Shown piece by piece: positions 2,925 to 63,667 of a DNA stretch of 64,000 nt (within the stretch, counting starts at the first letter, position 1; every line of letters begins with the position of its first letter). Location of the stretch: positions 103,517 through 167,516 of the forward strand of contig JACQHJ010000003.1 in NCBI GenBank assembly GCA_016199085.1. The letters are read 5' to 3'. A program made the position numbers and the translations under genes. The notes under the pieces are model-generated. The model was not told the origin of the DNA. It did no database searches and worked only from the letters and a program-made list of their open reading frames with translations. Origin of the DNA: Candidatus Levyibacteriota bacterium. Its GTDB lineage: Bacteria > Patescibacteriota > Microgenomatia > Levybacterales > UBA12049.

Positions 2925-3935
2925 ATGTCTAAAAAAGCATTAATTATAGGCGTTTCTTCCCAGGACGGTTCATACCTGGCCGAACTGCTCCTTAGTAAAG
3001 GCTACGAGGTCACAGGAACCGTAAGACACACTACAAACTTCTACCAGGAAAACATCACTCACCTCTACGGAAAGATAGGAATTGAAGCTGCGGATTTAAT
3101 TGATCTTGAAAGCCTTGCCAATGCCGTCAGAAAAAGTAAACCCGATGAAGTCTATAATATTGCCGCACAAAGTATCCCTGCAGACAGCTGGACTCATCCT
3201 TTCTATACGGGTGAGGTAACAGCTTTGGGTGCCGTACGGGCAATGGAGGCAGTCAGGCACTTTGCTCCTGGTGCCAAATTCTATCAGGCAACGAGTAGGG
3301 AAATTTACGGCAATATCCAAGCTGAAGCTGCAACAGAAGACCTTTTGTGCGATGCCAATAACCCATACGGCATAGCCAAGGCCTATGCTCACATGATGGC
3401 ACGCTGCTATAGAGAATCTTTCGGTATGTTTGTCTGTGGAGGAATCCTCTTTAACCACGAAAGTCCAAGAAGAAGCTTGCATTTTGTAACCAGGAAAATA
3501 TCGGCTGCTGCAGCTTGTATTAAAAATGGAGTCAAAAATCCGCCCCTAAATGAGCTTGGAGAACCGTTGGTTGATAAAAATGGCAAGCTCCACCTTGGTA
3601 ACCTGGATTCAAAAAGAGACTGGGGCTATGCAAAGGAATATGTAGAGGCAATGTGGCTTATCGTCCAAAATTCTACTCCCAAAGATTATGTGATAGGAAC
3701 AAACAAGACATATTCCGTAAGAGAGGCATGTAAGATTGCCTTTGACCATGTTGGTCTTAACTGGGAAGATCACGTTGTCTCAAATGAAAAGCTACTTAGA
3801 CCTACCGAGATTAAGGAGCTAAAAGGAGATTATTCTCTTGCTAAAAAAGAGCTTGGATGGGAACCAAAGACCTCATTTGAGCAACTTATGAAAATAATGG
3901 TAGAAGCAGATCTCGAGAGATTTAAAATCCACTAA
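2925..3935 (+). CDS. gmd: GDP-mannose 4,6-dehydratase
   Basis: KKALIIGVSSQDGSYLAELLLSKGYEVTG and NLDSKRDWGYAKEYVEAMW are typical of Gmd. Confidence 0.9.
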   Translation: MSKKALIIGVSSQDGSYLAELLLSKGYEVTGTVRHTTNFYQENITHLYGKIGIEAADLIDLESLANAVRKSKPDEVYNIAAQSIPADSWTHPFYTGEVTALGAVRAMEAVRHFAPGAKFYQATSREIYGNIQAEAATEDLLCDANNPYGIAKAYAHMMARCYRESFGMFVCGGILFNHESPRRSLHFVTRKISAAAACIKNGVKNPPLNELGEPLVDKNGKLHLGNLDSKRDWGYAKEYVEAMWLIVQNSTPKDYVIGTNKTYSVREACKIAFDHVGLNWEDHVVSNEKLLRPTEIKELKGDYSLAKKELGWEPKTSFEQLMKIMVEADLERFKIH

Positions 3936-4888: not shown

Positions 4889-6180
4889 TATCTTCCAACT
4901 CCCTGATAGGTAATCTCGAGTCTTTTAACTTCCTGCGGATTATAAATGTTTCTTCCGTCAAGTATAACCGGTTTTTTCATTACCTCTTTTATTTTTGCAA
5001 GATCAAGCTGTTTAAATTCATTCCATTCTGTAAGAACTATTAAAAGATCAGCGTCTCTTGCAGCCGAATATGAATCTTCACAAAACTCTACACCTGAAAA
5101 GATTTTTTTGGCATTTTCCATTGCAACCGGATCATAGGCTTTTATTTTTGCGCCATCCTTTAAAAGAGCGTTGATTATGGGAATTGACGGAGCATCTCTC
5201 ATGTCATCGGTGTTAGGCTTAAATGACAGTCCCAAAACACCAATCGTTGCGCCTTTAACATTGTTTCCTAGAAGTTTTTTGGCTTTGACAACTATGTCAT
5301 CCATTGCATCTGAATTTATTTTATCCACGGCTTTTAAAAGTTCGAAGTCATAACCATAAGAGTCGGCAATTGAGATTAACGCTTTGACGTCTTTTGGGAA
5401 GCAGGAACCCCCAAAACCTGCGCCTGGGGAAAGGAACTGATTTCCGATTCTTGCGTCATAACCTATTCCTTCCAGCACCTTTAGTCCGTCAGCTTCTGAT
5501 GCCTCGCTAAGTTTTGCAATTGCGTTTGAAAAAGATATTTTTGTAGCCAAAAATGCATTGGCAGCGTATTTAATCATCTCAGCTGTTTCAATATTTGTTA
5601 AAACATAATTTCCGTCAATTGGCTCGTGGAGTTCTACTAATAATTCCCGGGCTTTTTGGCTGTCTGTTCCGATGACTATTCTATCGGGATGCAACGTGTC
5701 TGATATTGCCTGACCTTCTCTTAAAAATTCAGGGACAGAGCCAAGGTCGTATTCGGCCTTTTGGGGTTTTACCTTTTCTATAATTTCCCGTGTCTTTTTA
5801 TTTGTTCCGACAGGCACTGTGCTTTTTGTGACAACAACCGTATATCCGTCAAGATTCTTACCTATCTTTTCGGCGACTTCAAAGACAACAGAAAGATCTG
5901 CTTCTCCATTTTGTTTTGGAGGAGTACCAACGGCAATGAAGACCACTTTTGAGGAAGGAATCGCCTGGTCATAATTAAGAGTAAACAAAAGCCTTCCTGC
6001 GTTAACATTTCTTTGGACGATTTCCGAAAGACCCGGTTCGTAGATTGGGATTATGCCTTTTTTAAGGTTTTCTATTTTTTCCTTGGTGTGTCCTATTACC
6101 CAGACAGTGTTTCCAAGATCTGCAAAAACAGCTGCTGTGACCAATCCCACATATCCGTGCCCTACAAAAGTTATTGTCAT
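4888..6180 (-). CDS. ugd: UDP-glucose 6-dehydrogenase
   Basis: ITFVGHGYVGLVTAAVFADLGN and the catalytic GFGGSCFPKD motif. Confidence 0.9.
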   Translation of the reverse strand: MTITFVGHGYVGLVTAAVFADLGNTVWVIGHTKEKIENLKKGIIPIYEPGLSEIVQRNVNAGRLLFTLNYDQAIPSSKVVFIAVGTPPKQNGEADLSVVFEVAEKIGKNLDGYTVVVTKSTVPVGTNKKTREIIEKVKPQKAEYDLGSVPEFLREGQAISDTLHPDRIVIGTDSQKARELLVELHEPIDGNYVLTNIETAEMIKYAANAFLATKISFSNAIAKLSEASEADGLKVLEGIGYDARIGNQFLSPGAGFGGSCFPKDVKALISIADSYGYDFELLKAVDKINSDAMDDIVVKAKKLLGNNVKGATIGVLGLSFKPNTDDMRDAPSIPIINALLKDGAKIKAYDPVAMENAKKIFSGVEFCEDSYSAARDADLLIVLTEWNEFKQLDLAKIKEVMKKPVILDGRNIYNPQEVKRLEITYQGVGR

Positions 6181-8783: not shown

Positions 8784-9728
8784 CTACTCTGAAACTTTTA
8801 ATCCCAAAGTCGTTCTTTTCTCTAAAAATCCTATTGCCTTATCGACAATCCAATAGATAATAAATGGATATTTGTTTTTATAGTTTTTCTTATAAAAAAT
8901 CCTCATGGCACTAAATCTTTCCTTTTGAAGTCTTTTTTTGGTTTCAATGTTTGCCGTTGTTAACTCTTGGGTCTTTTTCTTGATACCGCTTGAGGCTCCT
9001 CCGATATGCATAATATTTGAAGTTCCAGCATAATAAATTTTATATCCTAATTTTTTAATATCCAGACAAAATTGCAGATCCTCACCGTAGAAAAAATAGT
9101 CCTCATCCCACCAGCCGACTTTTTCTCCAACCTCTTTCGGCATCATCATAAATGCCCCCTCTATCGCATCTACTTCATGGATGCTGTCAAAATCTTCCCA
9201 ACCCCTAGTGTATCCTGCAAAAATTCTGCTTTTAGGAAACAGTCTTTGGAGTCCCGAGAAATAACAAAGCGCATTCCAAGGAGTCGGAAAACCCCTGTGG
9301 CAATTAAAATCAATCTCTCCGTCTTTATTTATCAGCTTACAAGAAACAGCTCCTACATTTGGATTTTTGTCAAGAAATGAAATCATTTTATTAAGTGTTT
9401 CCTTATAAACAATCGTATCCGGATTTAGAAACAAAACGTATTTTCCCTTTGTATAGGCAACTCCCTTGTTGTTACCCTTGGAAAAACCTAAGTTCCCCCC
9501 GTTATCTATTATCTGAAATGTTTTTATAGATGTAGTTTCTTTATATTTTTTAAAAAACTCCAAGCTGCCGTCGGTTGAGCTATTATCCGCTACGATTACC
9601 TCGTACTCTCCTGATTTAACTTCATCGGAATAGTTTTCTTCAATCGATTTAACCGCATCTAGGGTTATTTCCTTGGTGTTGTAGGTCAAAATTATTATTG
9701 AAAGGGTAGGTCTTAAGTCTTTTTGCAT
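8784..9728 (-). CDS. Family 2 glycosyltransferase
   Basis: LSIIILTYNTKEITLDAVKSI...VIVADNSSTDGS is a GT2 signature. Confidence 0.8.
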   Translation of the reverse strand: MQKDLRPTLSIIILTYNTKEITLDAVKSIEENYSDEVKSGEYEVIVADNSSTDGSLEFFKKYKETTSIKTFQIIDNGGNLGFSKGNNKGVAYTKGKYVLFLNPDTIVYKETLNKMISFLDKNPNVGAVSCKLINKDGEIDFNCHRGFPTPWNALCYFSGLQRLFPKSRIFAGYTRGWEDFDSIHEVDAIEGAFMMMPKEVGEKVGWWDEDYFFYGEDLQFCLDIKKLGYKIYYAGTSNIMHIGGASSGIKKKTQELTTANIETKKRLQKERFSAMRIFYKKNYKNKYPFIIYWIVDKAIGFLEKRTTLGLKVSE

Positions 9729-10880: not shown

Positions 10881-11825
10881 TTAGACTATATATCCTTTAA
10901 TAATTACCAATATCAAAGCAAGAATAAGTCCTAAAAACATTATGTGATCCAAGTTGTGACCTACAAACCTTAGTATCTTTTTTCTTTCAATTATTATCAT
11001 ATCTAGAATAAAGACAAACATAAATATAGTGATTGCAACGGAGGCTAGATTTGAGGAAAATGTTTCCGCGTTAATAAGCGGTTTTATCTTGGGATTTACA
11101 TTACTTGCAACAGTTTCGGTATTGGTCTTTTCTTGGGCCAAAGGAGATGACTCCTCTTCAACCAAAGCCTGGGCTTTGGGAACTTGGGCAAAAGATTCCT
11201 CTGTTGATCCGGTTGCAACCTCTTTAACTGTTTCCTCTTGAGTCTTACTCGGTGCTGCAGCAAGAGTTGTGCTACCAAACATCTCTACAACCACAACAGT
11301 ATCTTCTCCGTTTAAGTTTCCAGTTACGACGGCAAAGCCTACATTATTATAATTTGGGGAAAGAATATTGTCCTTATGTGATTGACTTGCCATCCAGGCA
11401 TTAATTACGTCGGAGGTGTTAGTATATCCCCTAGCCAAATTTTCCCCTGCAAAGGTATAATTGTAGCCAGCTCCTCTAATAAAAACCCAGGGAGTGGCAC
11501 CATCTGGAGCTATATGAGCCCAGTATCCTTTGGCAAGCATATCGCTTCCCTTATTAGCTGCTGCCGTATTTAGTCTCCCATCTAAACTCAACGGGGGAAG
11601 ACCGCTTTCTTGTCTTTTTTGATTAGTCAATATAAGCAGTTGATCTATGGAGACATCAGAAGATATACCCAAAATCTCCGGGTAGTTAGTCTTTGCAAAA
11701 GACATCAAAAGACCTGCTGAGAAAAAGAAAAGCGTTAGAAGCAAAAGAATCTTTGGATGAAGCAATCTTGGCCTGTAATTATTTGAAGTTTGAGGAGTAA
11801 AAAAATGATAAATAAAGCTAACCAT
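10881..11825 (-). CDS. CAP (SCP/PR-1/YkwD-like) domain protein with N- and C-terminal membrane anchors
   Basis: GYWAHIAPDG...FAGENLARGY...AWMASQSHKDNIL...VGFAV is the CAP-domain core. Confidence 0.7.
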   Translation of the reverse strand: MVSFIYHFFTPQTSNNYRPRLLHPKILLLLTLFFFSAGLLMSFAKTNYPEILGISSDVSIDQLLILTNQKRQESGLPPLSLDGRLNTAAANKGSDMLAKGYWAHIAPDGATPWVFIRGAGYNYTFAGENLARGYTNTSDVINAWMASQSHKDNILSPNYNNVGFAVVTGNLNGEDTVVVVEMFGSTTLAAAPSKTQEETVKEVATGSTEESFAQVPKAQALVEEESSPLAQEKTNTETVASNVNPKIKPLINAETFSSNLASVAITIFMFVFILDMIIIERKKILRFVGHNLDHIMFLGLILALILVIIKGYIV

Positions 11826-58497: not shown

Positions 58498-59022
58498 TTA
58501 TTTTTTAATTTTTTCCATTAATAAGTCACTGTATGAAACTTCTATTAGATCCTTTTCCTTAACATCAAATAGCTTAAGATACTTCTGGCATTGTATTAAT
58601 AACTTATCTTTCCCAATATTACCGTTTTTGTCTATTGCTTCAATTTCCATAAATGTCCCTAAATCCTTAACTGTATCTACGTGAAACTTTACATTTTCTA
58701 TGAAATAGATTTTTCTTTCTTTATCTACGATTACCAAAACTCCAAGTGCATTCATCAAAATATTTTTAAGTGGTGAGTTTGGAACTGTTTTGAGAAGAAT
58801 AATCTTTGATTTTTTAGGTCCTTTTTTATTTTCTCTCTCATAATAAATAAGATAATTTTCAATATTACCTTCACGTAATTTTAATCTTCCCCGAGCTACT
58901 TTAAAATATGTATCTATTTGATAATCTGTTCCTTTAAAATCCGCTTTGCATGACTTAAGAATTGACAAAATTGCCTTCGGATTACTACATCTTGCTTTAA
59001 TCTCAATATTTAAATGTTTCAT
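58498..59022 (-). CDS. CYTH-domain protein (CyaB-like class IV adenylyl cyclase / triphosphatase fold)
   Basis: N-terminal NIEIKARCSNP matches the CYTH EXEXK motif. Length is typical of CyaB. Confidence 0.65.
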   Translation of the reverse strand: MKHLNIEIKARCSNPKAILSILKSCKADFKGTDYQIDTYFKVARGRLKLREGNIENYLIYYERENKKGPKKSKIILLKTVPNSPLKNILMNALGVLVIVDKERKIYFIENVKFHVDTVKDLGTFMEIEAIDKNGNIGKDKLLIQCQKYLKLFDVKEKDLIEVSYSDLLMEKIKK

Positions 59023-60411: not shown

Positions 60412-60933
60412 CTAATTATACCGATTTCGTATTAATTGGTCAACAACTTCTTTGATTGTATCCCAGTTAAATCCGCGGGAAGCAAGAAATCTAACGAGCT
60501 TTTCATATTGTTTTTGAGGTTCATCGTTTTTAAGTCTTGGCAATTTTTTCTTGGCAATTTTTTTTGCTTTATCCAGGTCACTTTCTGTCTCTACGGATTT
60601 ATCTTGTAATATTTCGTCAACAAGATCTTTATCTATTCCCTTTTGGGCAAGTTCTAATTTAATAAGTCTTTGTGCTTTAGGTCTAAATTTTGTTCTTTGT
60701 TCTATCCACCACTTGGAAAAATCAGTATCGTTTATGAAATTATGTTCCTTAAGGCTTTCAATAATTCTTTTAATAGTTAGATCATCTGCTTTTTTCTTAA
60801 TTAAATAGTCTCTGACTTCTTTTTCGCTTCGGGGTCTATACGACAGAAATTTATAGGATTTATTGAGGAGCTTTTCAAAATTATCCATTAAAGATTTACT
60901 CTTCTTTTGCTTCTTCCACTCCGACTTCAACAC
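60412..60933 (-). CDS. recX: RecA regulator RecX
   Basis: Immediately downstream of recA and overlapping it. The helical repeat protein has a RecX-like N-terminus ([20 protein letters not shown]). Confidence 0.75.
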
Positions 60934-61978
60934 GAGCAGGTGTAGTTTTACTTACGGTCATTATCTGCTCAACAATCTTTTTGGCAACATCTGGTTTTTC
61001 TTTTAAGAAAGCAATTGAGGCCTGTTTTCCCTGGCCAAGCATTAATTCACCGTATCTAAAGAATGCTCCGGATTTACTAATTATTCCCATATCTACTCCA
61101 ACATCCATTATTCCGCCTTCTCTTGAAATTCCGGTGTCTCCGTAGACGTCAAATTCTGCAATTCTAAAAGGAGAGGAAACTTTGTTTTTAACAATCTTTG
61201 CTCTATGTCTACTGCCTATTACCCTGTCTCCTTCTTTAAGGCTTTCAATTTTTCGAATATCTATTCTGACTGAGGAATAAAATTTTAAAGCAAGTCCTCC
61301 TGTTGTAGTCTCGGGATTTCCAAACATGATTCCAATTTTTTGTCTTAATTGGTTTGTAAAAATAACAACTGTTTTTGATTTGGAAATTACAGCCGTTAGC
61401 TTTCTTAAAGCCTGGGACATCAGTCTTGCCTGAAGACCCATGACAGCGTCTCCCATTTCACCCTCAATTTCAGCCCTTGGGACCAAAGCTGCAACGCTGT
61501 CAATAACTAAAACATCAACTCCACCCGATCTTATCAAGCTTTCTGCAATTTCCAAAGCCTGTTCTCCCGTATCCGGCTGGGAAATTAATAAATCATCAAG
61601 CTTTATTCCAATCCTTTCAGCCCACAGCGGATCAAGTGCATGTTCTGCGTCAATAAAGGCTGCAACGCCTCCGTGTTTTTGGGCTTGGGCAATAATTGAA
61701 AGACAGACTGTAGTTTTTCCGGAAGCTTCAGGACCGTAAATTTCGATGATTCTACCCCTTGGCACTCCCCCTACCCCGAGCGCTAAATCTAAGGGAAGAC
61801 AGCCTGTGGAGATAACCGAGATATCAAGTTTTTGCCCTATGTCTCCAAACCTCATAATGGAGCCCCTACCGTATTGTTTTTCGATTTGTTCCATTGCAAG
61901 CTTGACAGCTTCCATCTTTCCGGAGGGTTGGACTTGACCGTTGGGCATCGATTTGGTTGGATTTGCAGTGCGCGCCAT
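60896..61978 (-). CDS. recA: Recombinase RecA
   Basis: Walker [10 protein letters not shown], and [10 protein letters not shown]. Canonical RecA throughout. Confidence 0.95.
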
Positions 61979-62003: not shown

Positions 62004-62012
62004 GTTATAATG
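62004..62012 (+). promoter_or_regulatory. Extended -10-like element (TGtTATAAT) about 19 nt upstream of the tRNA-like gene
   Basis: tgttataat read from sequence at 62004-62012. Confidence 0.35.
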
Positions 62013-62030
62013 CAATATGTAAAACCGTTA

Positions 62031-62104
62031 CGGGGAATAGCTCAGATAGATAGAGCGCGCGCATGGGGTGCGTGAGGTCGCTGGGGCGGAACCAGTTTCC
62101 CCGA
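62031..62104 (+). tRNA. tRNA-Pro(GGG)-like gene with a non-canonical D-loop (no G18G19) and T-loop (GGCGGAA instead of TTCRANY); no encoded CCA
   Basis: Manual fold of 74 nt. Acceptor stem CGGGGAA/TTCCCCG (7 bp). U8, A9. D-stem GCTC/GAGC with loop AGATAGATA. Anticodon stem CGCGC/GCGTG with loop A-T-GGG-G-T (U33, anticodon GGG, G37). Variable loop AGGTC. T-stem GCTGG/CCAGT with loop GGCGGAA. Discriminator A. Confidence 0.5.
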
Positions 62105-62177
62105 CTAATGCGATAATCTATATTTAGAGTTTACAGTTGATTAGCTAACATCTCTTATTCTAACCTCCATTTTTATG

Positions 62178-62206
62178 TTGACAAACAAAGCATATTGCAG
62201 TATATT
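62178..62206 (+). promoter_or_regulatory. Near-consensus sigma70 promoter TTGACA-N17-TATATT driving the 62233 ORF
   Basis: ttgaca at 62178-62183, a 17-nt spacer, tatatt at 62201-62206. The ORF ATG lies 27 nt downstream. Confidence 0.55.
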
Positions 62207-62232
62207 ATGGCCGTACTGTCCAATATACCTTT

Positions 62233-62829
62233 ATGGCAGATACAGAAAAAGAGCATTCACAATCGTATACAGAATTAGTCGAAGCATTTAATCAAGCTGC
62301 TAACTCATCTAACGCATTAATCTCCCAAGCCGCCGATCTACAAACTGAAGCACGGGCAAGATTTGAAGAATTGGCAGCACTCCGGGGACGAATGCTTGAG
62401 GAAAAGCTTAGACAAAGAGGATTGACTGTTTGTTCTGAAACGCCTGGAAGACATGATGAAAATCCAGACAGACCCGAAGATAGATTAGGGGTATTCCCCC
62501 AAGGAGAAATGCGGTTACTTTACGAAGCTGTTACTGTATGGGCAGGCGGACATGGATATGAACACTTAGAAAGAGATCCTGTGCTCAAACAACTATGCCC
62601 CCAACACTTTCCTACTAAAGGACTCAATCTAGTGTGGCCATCAGGACATTCTTCAGCAAAATTTGACATTCGAAGTGAAGTCGTTGAACACGACGGAAGA
62701 CTAGTAACATTGGTAAATGAAATTGATGTAACCAGTTTGCCGCCTCTAAGAAGGGGTTACACTCCTGATATGTATCGACATTTTGGCATTCCTAACTTAC
62801 CAACAACTCCACTTATTACTATTAGATAG
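62233..62829 (+). CDS. Hypothetical protein of atypical composition (GC-richer, Arg/Glu-rich), likely horizontally acquired; function unknown
   Basis: 198-aa ORF whose codon and base composition differ visibly from all neighbours (many CGN/GCN/CCN codons). N-terminal helical, coiled-coil-like segment. No motif recognised. Flanked by the tRNA-like gene and the strong promoter. Confidence 0.5.
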   Translation: MADTEKEHSQSYTELVEAFNQAANSSNALISQAADLQTEARARFEELAALRGRMLEEKLRQRGLTVCSETPGRHDENPDRPEDRLGVFPQGEMRLLYEAVTVWAGGHGYEHLERDPVLKQLCPQHFPTKGLNLVWPSGHSSAKFDIRSEVVEHDGRLVTLVNEIDVTSLPPLRRGYTPDMYRHFGIPNLPTTPLITIR

Positions 62830-62914
62830 AGTCTGTTCAAGGCTTATCGCTTCTACCAGATACTGAAATTTAAATTGCTTTTTAGGCCTATTTTGGCTAT
62901 AATCAACTCTACTT

Positions 62915-63667
62915 ATGATTTCACTCAGCCGTAAAAAAATGGATATTTACAGTGCGTTCCCGACGCTTAAATCAATTCCAAAGGAAAGCTTTCCCCAGTT
63001 TATTTTCATAATTCCTGACGGAAACAGAAGATATGCAAGGGAAAATGGAAAGTCCGTTCTTTGGGGGCATAAAAAAGGGCTTGACGTATGTATTTATCTT
63101 CTAAGAAGTATGAGACCGCTTCCTGTAAAAGTTGTGGGATTTTGGGGATTTTCTTCTGATAACTGGAAGAGAAATGAAAGAGAGATAAAAGGACTCATGA
63201 GTCTTTTTGAGTTATTTCTTACTAAGTATGTTGGAGAATTAATGGAGAACAATTCCAGATTCCTTCATCTTGGAAGAAGAGATAGATTACCAAAAAGATT
63301 AGTAGATAAAATTATAGAGGTTGAACAAAAAACCAGCAAGAATACCGGACAAATTGTTTGTGCAGCTTTAGATTTTGGAGGCGAAGATCAAATGATTAGA
63401 ATATTAAATAAAGCAAGACAGCTAGATAAAAATATTGAAATAACACCAGAACTATTGCATTCCTTAAGAGATGGGAATGGCCTAGTTCCATCAGCAGATT
63501 TGATTATTAGAACTTCCGAAATTAGGACATCGGATTTAGGATGGATTAATGGTAAAAATACTGTGCTTTATTTTATTCCTGAAAAGTATTTTCCAGATAT
63601 GGATAATGGTGACGTAGTAAAAGGCATTGAATTTTTCTATCAAACTGAAAGAAGACAAGGTAAATAA
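62915..63667 (+). CDS. uppS: cis-Prenyltransferase (undecaprenyl diphosphate synthase family)
   Basis: FIIPDGNRRYA (cf. IIMDGNGRWA), FSSDNWKRNEREI and IRTSEIRTSD are UppS-family motifs. The start may be the internal MDIYSAF. Confidence 0.8.
   Translation: MISLSRKKMDIYSAFPTLKSIPKESFPQFIFIIPDGNRRYARENGKSVLWGHKKGLDVCIYLLRSMRPLPVKVVGFWGFSSDNWKRNEREIKGLMSLFELFLTKYVGELMENNSRFLHLGRRDRLPKRLVDKIIEVEQKTSKNTGQIVCAALDFGGEDQMIRILNKARQLDKNIEITPELLHSLRDGNGLVPSADLIIRTSEIRTSDLGWINGKNTVLYFIPEKYFPDMDNGDVVKGIEFFYQTERRQGK

Follow-up and report, generated by a model that had tools for sequence, protein, structure and literature searches.

How did a gene without any recognisable domain come to stand alone between recA and the isoprenoid-carrier genes of a bacterium from the candidate phyla radiation (CPR; Patescibacteria)? 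The question is posed by ORF198, an open reading frame (ORF) in a stretch of 64,000 nucleotides of a Candidatus Levyibacteriota genome, which was analysed at its full length and is referred to as the window. The first-pass annotation of this DNA described a 198-aa ORF on the plus strand behind a TTGACA-N17-TATATT promoter, wedged between recA with an adjacent tRNA-like gene and the isoprenoid genes, and took the arrangement for the footprint of horizontally acquired cargo. The ORF and the promoter are present where they were placed (Table 1), and the neighbours are recA with a tRNA-shaped sequence on one side and uppS followed by a polyprenyl synthetase gene on the other. The explanation that we favour, with a probability of roughly 0.55, is that ORF198 constitutes an accessory single-gene transcription unit from a rare protein family of CPR-like genomes, which this lineage gained at the 3' end of a tRNA-Pro(GGG) gene, with remodelling of the tRNA.

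Insertion between recA and uppS

A scan of the GTDB species representatives seeded with UppS yielded nine loci, including L019, L020, L021 and L022, whose genomes are closely related to that of the window: RecA is 89-96% and UppS 71-87% identical (71-91% for UppS across L018-L022), while the aligned flanks show a background DNA identity of 72-85%. The distance from recA to uppS is 180-250 bp in each of the four, a canonical tRNA-Pro(GGG) being the sole gene in between, and tblastn reveals no homologue of ORF198 in any of the loci L018-L023. The additional segment of the window begins directly past the tRNA 3' end, with the left junction at 62105/62106 (CCCCGAC/TAATGCG) in alignment A5 and blastn, and ends at the right junction 62866/62867 (ATACTGA/AATTTAAATTGC). 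Its start lies 1-2 nt past the discriminator base of the cloverleaf described below, at the position where the tRNA-Pro(GGG) of the relatives has its 3' end. In blastn, similarity to the relatives stops at 62073 and restarts at 62867. The insert comprises the promoter, ORF198 and a trailer of 37 bp; among ORFs of at least 50 aa it holds ORF198 only, and no partner gene. Insertion of a single-gene segment of 761 bp at the tRNA 3' end is real and well supported. In this respect the horizontal single-gene insertion proposed by the first-pass annotation stands on the four relatives that are devoid of the segment, whereas the compositional basis offered for it is weak.

The same protein is recorded, identical, as hypothetical protein HY344_02820 of Candidatus Levybacteria bacterium at NCBI, on a 182-kb contig. 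Moreover, the Logan contig L001 (SRR12113385), an independent assembly, spans both junctions and carries the recA 5' end, the cloverleaf, ORF198 and the start of uppS in this order.

Several further features were noticed at the locus and its surroundings. A 14-nt inverted repeat, TATAATGCAATATG/CATATTGCAGTATA, at 62006-62019 and 62191-62204, is 93% complementary and joins the spacer upstream of the cloverleaf with the promoter spacer of ORF198; by our own estimate it is borderline with respect to chance. In L022, about 70 extra nt are found at about 1300-1400, in the recA-tRNA spacer upstream of tRNA-Pro(GGG), which are present neither in the window nor in the other relatives. Upstream of ORF198, the minus strand encodes an AI-2E transporter, HU, a CYTH-domain protein, RNase Y, RecX and RecA, and downstream of it the plus strand encodes UppS and polyprenyl synthetase. 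The gene for the CYTH-domain protein (58498-59022, minus strand), situated between HU and RNase Y, represents a second indel: in L019 (1792-1857) HU adjoins RNase Y without a CYTH gene, while in L021 (322-1846) the spacer contains genes for a HIT protein, a GNAT acetyltransferase and a kinase-like P-loop protein instead. Since the contents of the HU-RNase Y spacer thus differ between the window, L019 and L021, this spacer is another variable hotspot in these genomes. As to taxonomy, L018, L019, L021 and L022 bear the database label 'uncultured Gammaproteobacteria bacterium' and L020 the label 'Patescibacteria group bacterium'; the gammaproteobacterial labels look wrong, given 71-96% protein identity and full synteny with the Candidatus Levybacteria locus.

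The cloverleaf at the left junction

Adjacent to the insert lies an RNA gene that is shaped like a tRNA and either derives from or replaces tRNA-Pro(GGG). It shares the position, the strand, the cloverleaf arms and the discriminator A with the canonical tRNA-Pro(GGG) of L019-L022; its helices follow a layout of 7/4/5/5 bp, the anticodon loop AUGGGGU is the same and the anticodon stem nearly so. It differs from them in the D loop (AGATAGATA), which has 9 nt and lacks the GG, in the T loop, which reads GGCGGAA instead of TTCAATT, and in the variable loop of 5 rather than 4 nt. It falls below the reporting thresholds of tRNA detection: ARAGORN makes no call down to -ps80 and Rfam (RF00005) gives no match at E<=10, while the ordinary tRNAs of related loci reach 45-72 bits. 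The 'tRNA-like gene' of the first-pass annotation has the cloverleaf fold with 21 of 21 stem pairs, but neither program recognises it as a tRNA. In the whole 64-kb window ARAGORN reports no tRNA and no Rfam family reaches its gathering threshold, and the cloverleaf is the sole tRNA-shaped sequence.

The divergence is confined to the RNA gene. It matches the tRNAs of the relatives at 48-50 of 74 positions, as compared to 61-71 of 71 among the relatives themselves, and identity to their flanking spacers is 74-100%, with 74-81% on the left and about 98% on the right. All 21 stem pairs of the relatives' tRNA-Pro are kept, five of them by changes on both sides, i.e., in a compensatory manner. Random decay at such divergence would not spare all helices, and loss of the elbow with every helix kept is a pattern that simple decay would not give; hence, either the cassette brought the cloverleaf along as a foreign tRNA-like copy, or the cloverleaf is an RNA whose secondary structure is still under selection. 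The limit of blastn similarity at 62073 falls on the 3' side of the anticodon stem and would fit a crossover at this site. Since the D arm differs as well, a simple integrase crossover is insufficient to explain the changes. As the tRNA has been replaced too, the whole unit of difference extends from about 62031 or 62074 to 62866. In two other loci of the protein family, L012 and L008, the intervals between the tRNA and the family gene do not form cloverleaves, so that a remodelled tRNA is no general companion of the family.

A rare protein family with its own promoters

In a HMMER scan of 1.84 billion cluster representatives, which stand for about 15 billion proteins, 64 clusters at 50% identity were found at a cut-off of E<=1e-3, ORF198 included (63 others); the designation as an orphan gene is thereby overturned. 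The members are 114-268 aa long, mostly 170-220, and the matches span the full length, while the nearest homologue of ORF198 is only 44-48% identical. All 20 members that were looked up are single-member clusters, mostly from Logan metagenome assemblies. The family becomes visible only by the full HMMER scan: a word-indexed search returned one protein, ORF198 itself, for the single protein and five for an alignment of 38 sequences, and the member P0023 as a single query had no match in genome contigs. Metagenomes were scanned for the family by the C-terminal motif [YH]FG[IL]P[DE]LP, and because only this one motif was used, one subgroup was sampled. The proteins constitute a real, rare and coherent family that lacks annotation in any library searched.

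Alignments A1 and A3 reveal the family motifs GLxVCS, LGxFP, MRLxY, LCPxHFP, SEVxxxDGxL and DxT as well as a C-terminal Y..FG(L/I)PxLPxxP. In turn, GHGYEH and WPSGHSS, which the first-pass annotation had singled out, are lineage-specific, GGHGYEH recurring only in the closest homologue, P0003. The most conserved polar positions are Cys67 (62/62), Cys122 (64/64) and His125 (60/64, otherwise Cys or Asp), and in 57 of 64 members a His, His74 in ORF198, follows the first Cys at a distance of 2-9 residues. In the AlphaFold2 model the invariant Cys residues follow the strands 64-66 and 109-121, which places two ligand pairs at strand ends. This Cys/His pattern is the signature of a putative four-ligand metal site, with zinc as the most likely metal. 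Elsewhere, conservation concerns hydrophobic residues, Gly and Pro, while the polar residues R51, R94, S148, E149, D165 and T167 are conserved to only 65-80%, and the conservation table of the 64 members contains no constellation of catalytic residues. Both halves of the protein are acidic, as is the family with a median isoelectric point (pI) of about 5.7. Conservation within the predicted N-terminal helix is limited to A40, R51, L55 and L59, towards its C-terminal end; the helix is presumed to form a coiled coil.

Confidence of the AlphaFold2 model rises from a pLDDT of 47.5 for the single sequence to 94.5 (pTM 0.80) with the alignment of 64 sequences. The model contains a short helix at residues 178-183 in addition to the elements listed in Table 1. 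Foldseek detects no match at E<=0.001 in PDB or BFVD. This combination of a confident predicted structure and no match in either structure collection makes the beta-rich domain a candidate new fold, which it may indeed be. Nothing consistent emerged from profile searches against PDB sequences or from Pfam, PADLOC and PHROGs scans of all 64 members, where PADLOC produced only two single, marginal matches to coiled coils. ORF198 itself has no Pfam, NCBIfam, PHROG or PADLOC domain, the best match in PADLOC-DB 2.0 being E=0.075, in accordance with the earlier statement that no domain is recognisable. Neither sequence nor fold matches a nuclease family with its catalytic residues (HNH, His-Cys box, GIY-YIG, LAGLIDADG or PD-(D/E)XK). 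At the sensitivity available, IMG/VR scans with the motif, the window protein and the aberrant T-arm sequence gave no match, and tblastn against the INPHARED phages and PLSDB plasmids found no homologue. With neither annotation nor a significant structural match, ORF198 retains the rank of best candidate for an undescribed function that it had been given. Long helices joined to Cys/His domains are also known from YabA, DksA/TraR, the coiled-coil-FYVE protein EEA1 and the coiled-coil-MYND protein BS69, but the likeness concerns this layout only and does not extend beyond the helix, as none of them matches the beta-rich domain of 137 residues or the ligand pattern C...H...CPxH; we regard the resemblance as an analogy of layout, not as homology.

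The composition of ORF198 had been described as visibly GC-richer and Arg-rich compared with every other gene in the window. For Arg this is correct, with 8.6% (highest of 60 ORFs) versus 3.8% in the genome, while in GC content ORF198 ranks second of 60 ORFs (0.425 versus 0.361 for the window, z = +1.8), next to 0.432 for the ORF at 2925-3935 and 0.424 for recA. Lys is the lowest of the 60 ORFs (2.5% versus 9.2%), and the protein further deviates from the genome in Ile (3% versus 8.6%), Pro (7.1% versus 3.7%) and His (4.1% versus 1.6%). The GC excess resides in codon positions 1 and 2 (GC1 0.583, GC2 0.432). With z = -1.2, the third lowest value among 61 ORFs, the synonymous-codon score, calculated by leaving ORF198 out, deviates only mildly. 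The term 'compositionally foreign' thus holds for the protein make-up and only weakly for codon choice.

The -10 element of the ORF198 promoter ends 26 nt ahead of the ATG, and no Shine-Dalgarno sequence is evident at 62207-62232. None of the other ORFs among the 61 of the window is preceded by a promoter that matches the consensus as well, and a perfect -35 element occurs otherwise only at HU. The count of promoter sites in the local region is not above that of shuffled sequences; the match counts as significant because the promoter is conserved in homologous loci. In a survey of 15 distinct loci, 12 feature a perfect TTGACA with a good -10 element 40-131 bp before the start of the family gene, and TTGACA-16-TATAAT occurs in both loci where the family gene directly follows an AddA-like helicase-nuclease gene. 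Upstream of several homologues (L012, L014, L027 and L029) about 12 nt separate the end of the predicted -10 element from the ATG, a distance that would imply leaderless or nearly leaderless mRNAs for these loci. By its predicted promoters, the family gene appears almost always to be a stand-alone unit.

Sixteen distinct genomic contexts of family members were recovered, and no neighbour is common to all of them. A HIT hydrolase gene is the divergent neighbour in L008 and L011 and located nearby in L017, a NUDIX gene is divergent in L033, and three lineages of a single subgroup (L012, L015 and L030) have a PilB-like T2SSE ATPase gene no more than about 1.1 kb away. Recurrent neighbours also include TPR proteins and Fic. 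The subgroup L014, L015 and L030 shares one gene order, in which a T2SSE ATPase gene, a small gene, the family gene, another small gene and the gene for an RRM protein follow one another.

A tRNA gene is located within 400 bp of the family gene in 4 of the 16 contexts, namely in the window, L012, L008 and L011; according to our own binomial estimate, with one tRNA every 14-22 kb, the chance of at least 4 of 16 is about 0.004-0.02. A tRNA gene is thus found near family members more often than expected. In L011 the tRNA is situated 20 bp downstream. In L012 a tRNA-Gln gene precedes the family gene P0028, and the 3' end of this tRNA recurs as a perfect 20-nt direct repeat (CGAATCCCTGCTCCGCAGCC; 5686-5705 and 5772-5791). 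The copy is found 86 bp beyond the tRNA and about 210 bp ahead of P0028; the repeat looks like an attachment (att)-type scar of integration at tRNA-Gln. L008 carries tRNA-Pro(UGG) downstream, with a degenerate duplication of its 3' end at 8839-8857 and 8911-8929.

The remaining contexts provided further observations. L006 contains a tandem pair of paralogues, P0035 (1899-2483) and P0036 (2480-3076), the stop codon of the first overlapping the start codon of the second; an AddA-like gene (UvrD-helicase/PD-(D/E)XK) immediately precedes the pair. In L002-L005 this helicase-nuclease gene is followed by the related P0027, and in L003 RmuC is found upstream. The 16S rRNA gene of L012 (9016-11012) has 1997 nt as opposed to 1533 nt in the model, owing to an insertion of about 460 nt, and an ORF for a LAGLIDADG endonuclease (11297-11791) is located just downstream. 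Insertions in 16S rRNA genes are typical of CPR bacteria. So far, the family looks restricted to CPR-like genomes.

Table 1. Features of the ORF198 locus, in window coordinates
Feature	Position	Strand	Remarks
recA (left flank, housekeeping)	60896..61978	-	Pfam RecA E=1e-128; conserved and syntenic in relatives
Cloverleaf RNA gene, from or replacing tRNA-Pro(GGG)	62031..62104	+	74 nt; minimum-free-energy fold is a cloverleaf, -30.9 kcal/mol
Insertion of 761 bp relative to four related genomes	62106..62866	+	alignment A5, blastn
Sigma-70-type promoter (predicted) TTGACA-N17-TATATT	62178..62206	+	11/12 consensus match
ORF198	62233-62829	+	198 aa, 22 kDa, acidic (pI 5.6); undescribed protein family
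N-terminal helix, residues 2-61 (predicted)	62236..62415	+	one long charged alpha-helix, poorly conserved
Beta-rich globular domain, residues 62-198 (predicted)	62416..62826	+	strands 64-66, 87-89, 94-106, 109-121, 133-136, 144-153, 156-159
Candidate zinc site	62431..62607	+	inside the GLxVCS and LCPxHFP motifs
Candidate ligand Cys67	62431-62433	+	
Candidate ligand His74	62452-62454	+	
Candidate ligand Cys122	62596-62598	+	
Candidate ligand His125	62605-62607	+	
uppS upstream region, TTGCTT-N17-TATAAT	62867..62914	+	undamaged by the insertion; about 47/48 identical to L019
uppS (right flank, housekeeping)	62915..63667	+	undecaprenyl-diphosphate synthase family; Pfam Prenyltransf E=6e-41

Origin and possible role of ORF198

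According to the explanation favoured here, the segment 62106-62866 with its near-consensus promoter and ORF198 would have been gained between recA and uppS, while the relatives kept recA, tRNA and uppS uninterrupted. The gain would have been accompanied or followed by conversion of the canonical tRNA into a divergent cloverleaf that retains all stems but lacks the elbow nucleotides of the D and T loops. Entry probably occurred by one of two candidate routes, both of which the present sequence fits: integration at the tRNA with subsequent loss or erosion of the rest of a larger element, or homologous exchange with a donor allele that already held the tRNA-like gene together with ORF198. Members of the family would typically be independently promoted, usually monocistronic genes, each in a different neighbourhood. 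The ORF198 protein itself would be cytoplasmic and dimerize via its 60-residue N-terminal helix, while the beta-rich domain would be held by a Cys-His/Cys-x2-His zinc site and bind a partner, either protein or nucleic acid, without catalysis. On the whole, ORF198 would be a dispensable accessory factor, possibly involved in genetic conflict.

Several observations weigh against this picture. With regard to entry, the insert contains no recombinase or integrase domain, no terminator-like site is present within 62830-62914, and no att-type direct repeats were found to flank the insert, although repeats of the tRNA 3' end had been anticipated at its edges; a putative copy of the tRNA 3' half at the right junction (62830-62866) is not significant (shuffle p 0.2-0.6). 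A 12-nt repeat, AACCAGTTTCCC/AACCAGTTTGCC, was rejected as an att site, as it lies inside ORF198 and is at chance level. With 0.261 as compared to 0.300 on average in the window (z = -0.8), GC3 of ORF198 is native-like, which points to a donor of similar composition or to an old gain. The stable gene order in L014, L015 and L030 looks, on synteny, like that of a vertically inherited resident gene rather than a roaming cassette. Restriction to the CPR is based on one named genome, one 16S rRNA gene with an insertion and the look of the neighbourhoods, and the protein properties outlined above, i.e., dimer, zinc site and partner binding, derive from sequence and a predicted monomer.

These points have to be balanced against what the rival explanations can offer. 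The locus could owe its peculiarity to a chimeric assembly or to a chance non-coding ORF, given that the genome was assembled from a metagenome and that no more than one sample has yielded the exact protein; this idea is effectively refuted by the independent Logan assembly with the same order from the recA 5' end to the uppS start, by 63 homologous clusters with conserved motifs and lengths, and by a co-evolution signal strong enough for the pLDDT of 94.5. If recA-tRNA-ORF198-uppS were instead the ancestral order and the gene had been lost precisely elsewhere, neither flanking repeats nor an integrase would be expected and the native GC3 would be accounted for. Such losses are nevertheless improbable, since the four relatives agree in their junction, even L022, which is more distant (UppS 71%), and their tRNA is canonical and mutually conserved while that of the window is the aberrant one. 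Gain is more parsimonious than four precise losses because the distant L022 lacks the gene as well and no homologue from any source exceeds 44-48% identity. Alternatively, ORF198 may be a resident, lineage-specific CPR factor that acts, for example, with the PilB-like T2SSE ATPase or with HIT/NUDIX hydrolases, the window being a mere variant in gene order. The recurrence of these genes near family members (T2SSE ATPase in L012, L015 and L030; HIT in L008, L011 and L017; NUDIX in L033), the native composition at codon position 3 and a strong promoter that suits an abundant protein speak in its favour. It is rendered unlikely by the four close relatives, which keep every neighbouring gene yet lack ORF198, by the lack of a family-wide shared neighbour and by the scarcity of the family, with 64 clusters, nearly all singletons, among about 15 billion proteins.

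A role as defence, toxin or anti-phage cargo, which the first-pass annotation had put forward, would make ORF198 a one-gene immunity or abortive-infection effector in a tRNA-linked hotspot. The sporadic occurrence among close relatives beside a tRNA would agree with it, as would the rare, fast-evolving family, the tandem paralogues in L006 and the location of other members near tRNA clusters and genes for a PIN/RHH pair, HNH, Fic and ParE/Phd. Still, the proposal remains doubtful and without positive support: neither PADLOC nor PHROGs provides a model among the 64 members beyond the single marginal coiled-coil matches, no partner or immunity gene exists within the 761 bp, conserved residues are hydrophobic, Gly/Pro or of the metal-ligand type (four) rather than a catalytic set, the promoter is strong and apparently constitutive, and the neighbours of the family are mostly housekeeping genes. 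A selfish gene akin to a homing endonuclease, which would cut the tRNA-Pro region in genomes devoid of it and be copied in by repair, with the remodelled tRNA as the immune, co-converted target, would neatly account for the burst of changes confined to the adjacent conserved tRNA gene. It would likewise fit the presence or absence of a single self-promoted gene at one exact intergenic position devoid of repeats, the Cys/His metal-site motifs reminiscent of HNH and His-Cys-box nucleases, and members adjoining conserved targets such as tRNAs, recA and the helicase-nuclease gene. We consider this very improbable, because both domains are acidic, which is unusual for a DNA-binding nuclease, no catalytic His/Asn/Asp is conserved apart from the four presumed ligands, neither Pfam nor the fold searches connect the protein with a nuclease, and synteny is stable in one subgroup.

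A bolder extension of the gain scenario links the two anomalies of the locus. The cloverleaf and ORF198 would then be one mobile two-part module, in which a zinc-site protein with a new fold spreads among CPR genomes by targeting tRNA genes and leaves behind an elbow-less tRNA, which may be the immune target or the RNA partner of the protein. We attach only a slim chance to this scenario.

In terms of known genomic events, the gain of ORF198 at the tRNA-Pro(GGG) 3' end resembles two types of insertion. Standard features of a genomic island are that it occurs sporadically, deviates in composition and prefers tRNA genes (PMC9580842). The insert shares with tRNA-linked islands its sporadic presence among close relatives and its exact position at a tRNA 3' end; its composition may be mildly deviant, with raised GC but native-like GC3, and two further family loci (L012 and L008) exhibit duplicated tRNA 3' ends. 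It differs from them in that it comprises 761 bp and a single gene, with no integrase and no att direct repeats, and in that the tRNA of the window is altered in both its 5' and 3' halves, not only 3' of a crossover. The second type is the moron of temperate phages, which Juhala et al. in 2000 reportedly described as an independent unit of promoter, gene and, in some cases, terminator between genes that are adjacent in related genomes. The insert is likewise a self-contained unit with its own strong promoter between neighbours that adjoin in relatives, and its composition may differ from that of the flanks; in contrast to morons, it resides in a chromosomal housekeeping neighbourhood (recA, recX, rny and uppS) instead of a prophage, no terminator was found, and neither was a homologue in the phage collections searched. 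Taken together, this is a genomic event of a known kind, a tRNA-linked islet or moron-like insertion, that carries an undescribed protein family.

The locus provides a base-resolved case of recent gene gain in a CPR genome, a group with tiny genomes in which little is known about gene acquisition. The ORF198 family constitutes a well-defined target for structural and functional work, with a domain that is a candidate new fold. In addition, a cloverleaf with all helices but devoid of the elbow nucleotides raises the question of whether this RNA continues to be a tRNA, arose as a by-product of the insertion or works together with the protein. If cloverleaf and ORF198 were indeed one module, they would represent a selfish or conflict element of a new kind, directed at tRNAs and independent of an integrase. 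No general concept is changed by these findings as yet; their value for the biology of CPR bacteria is that of a concrete and tractable lead.

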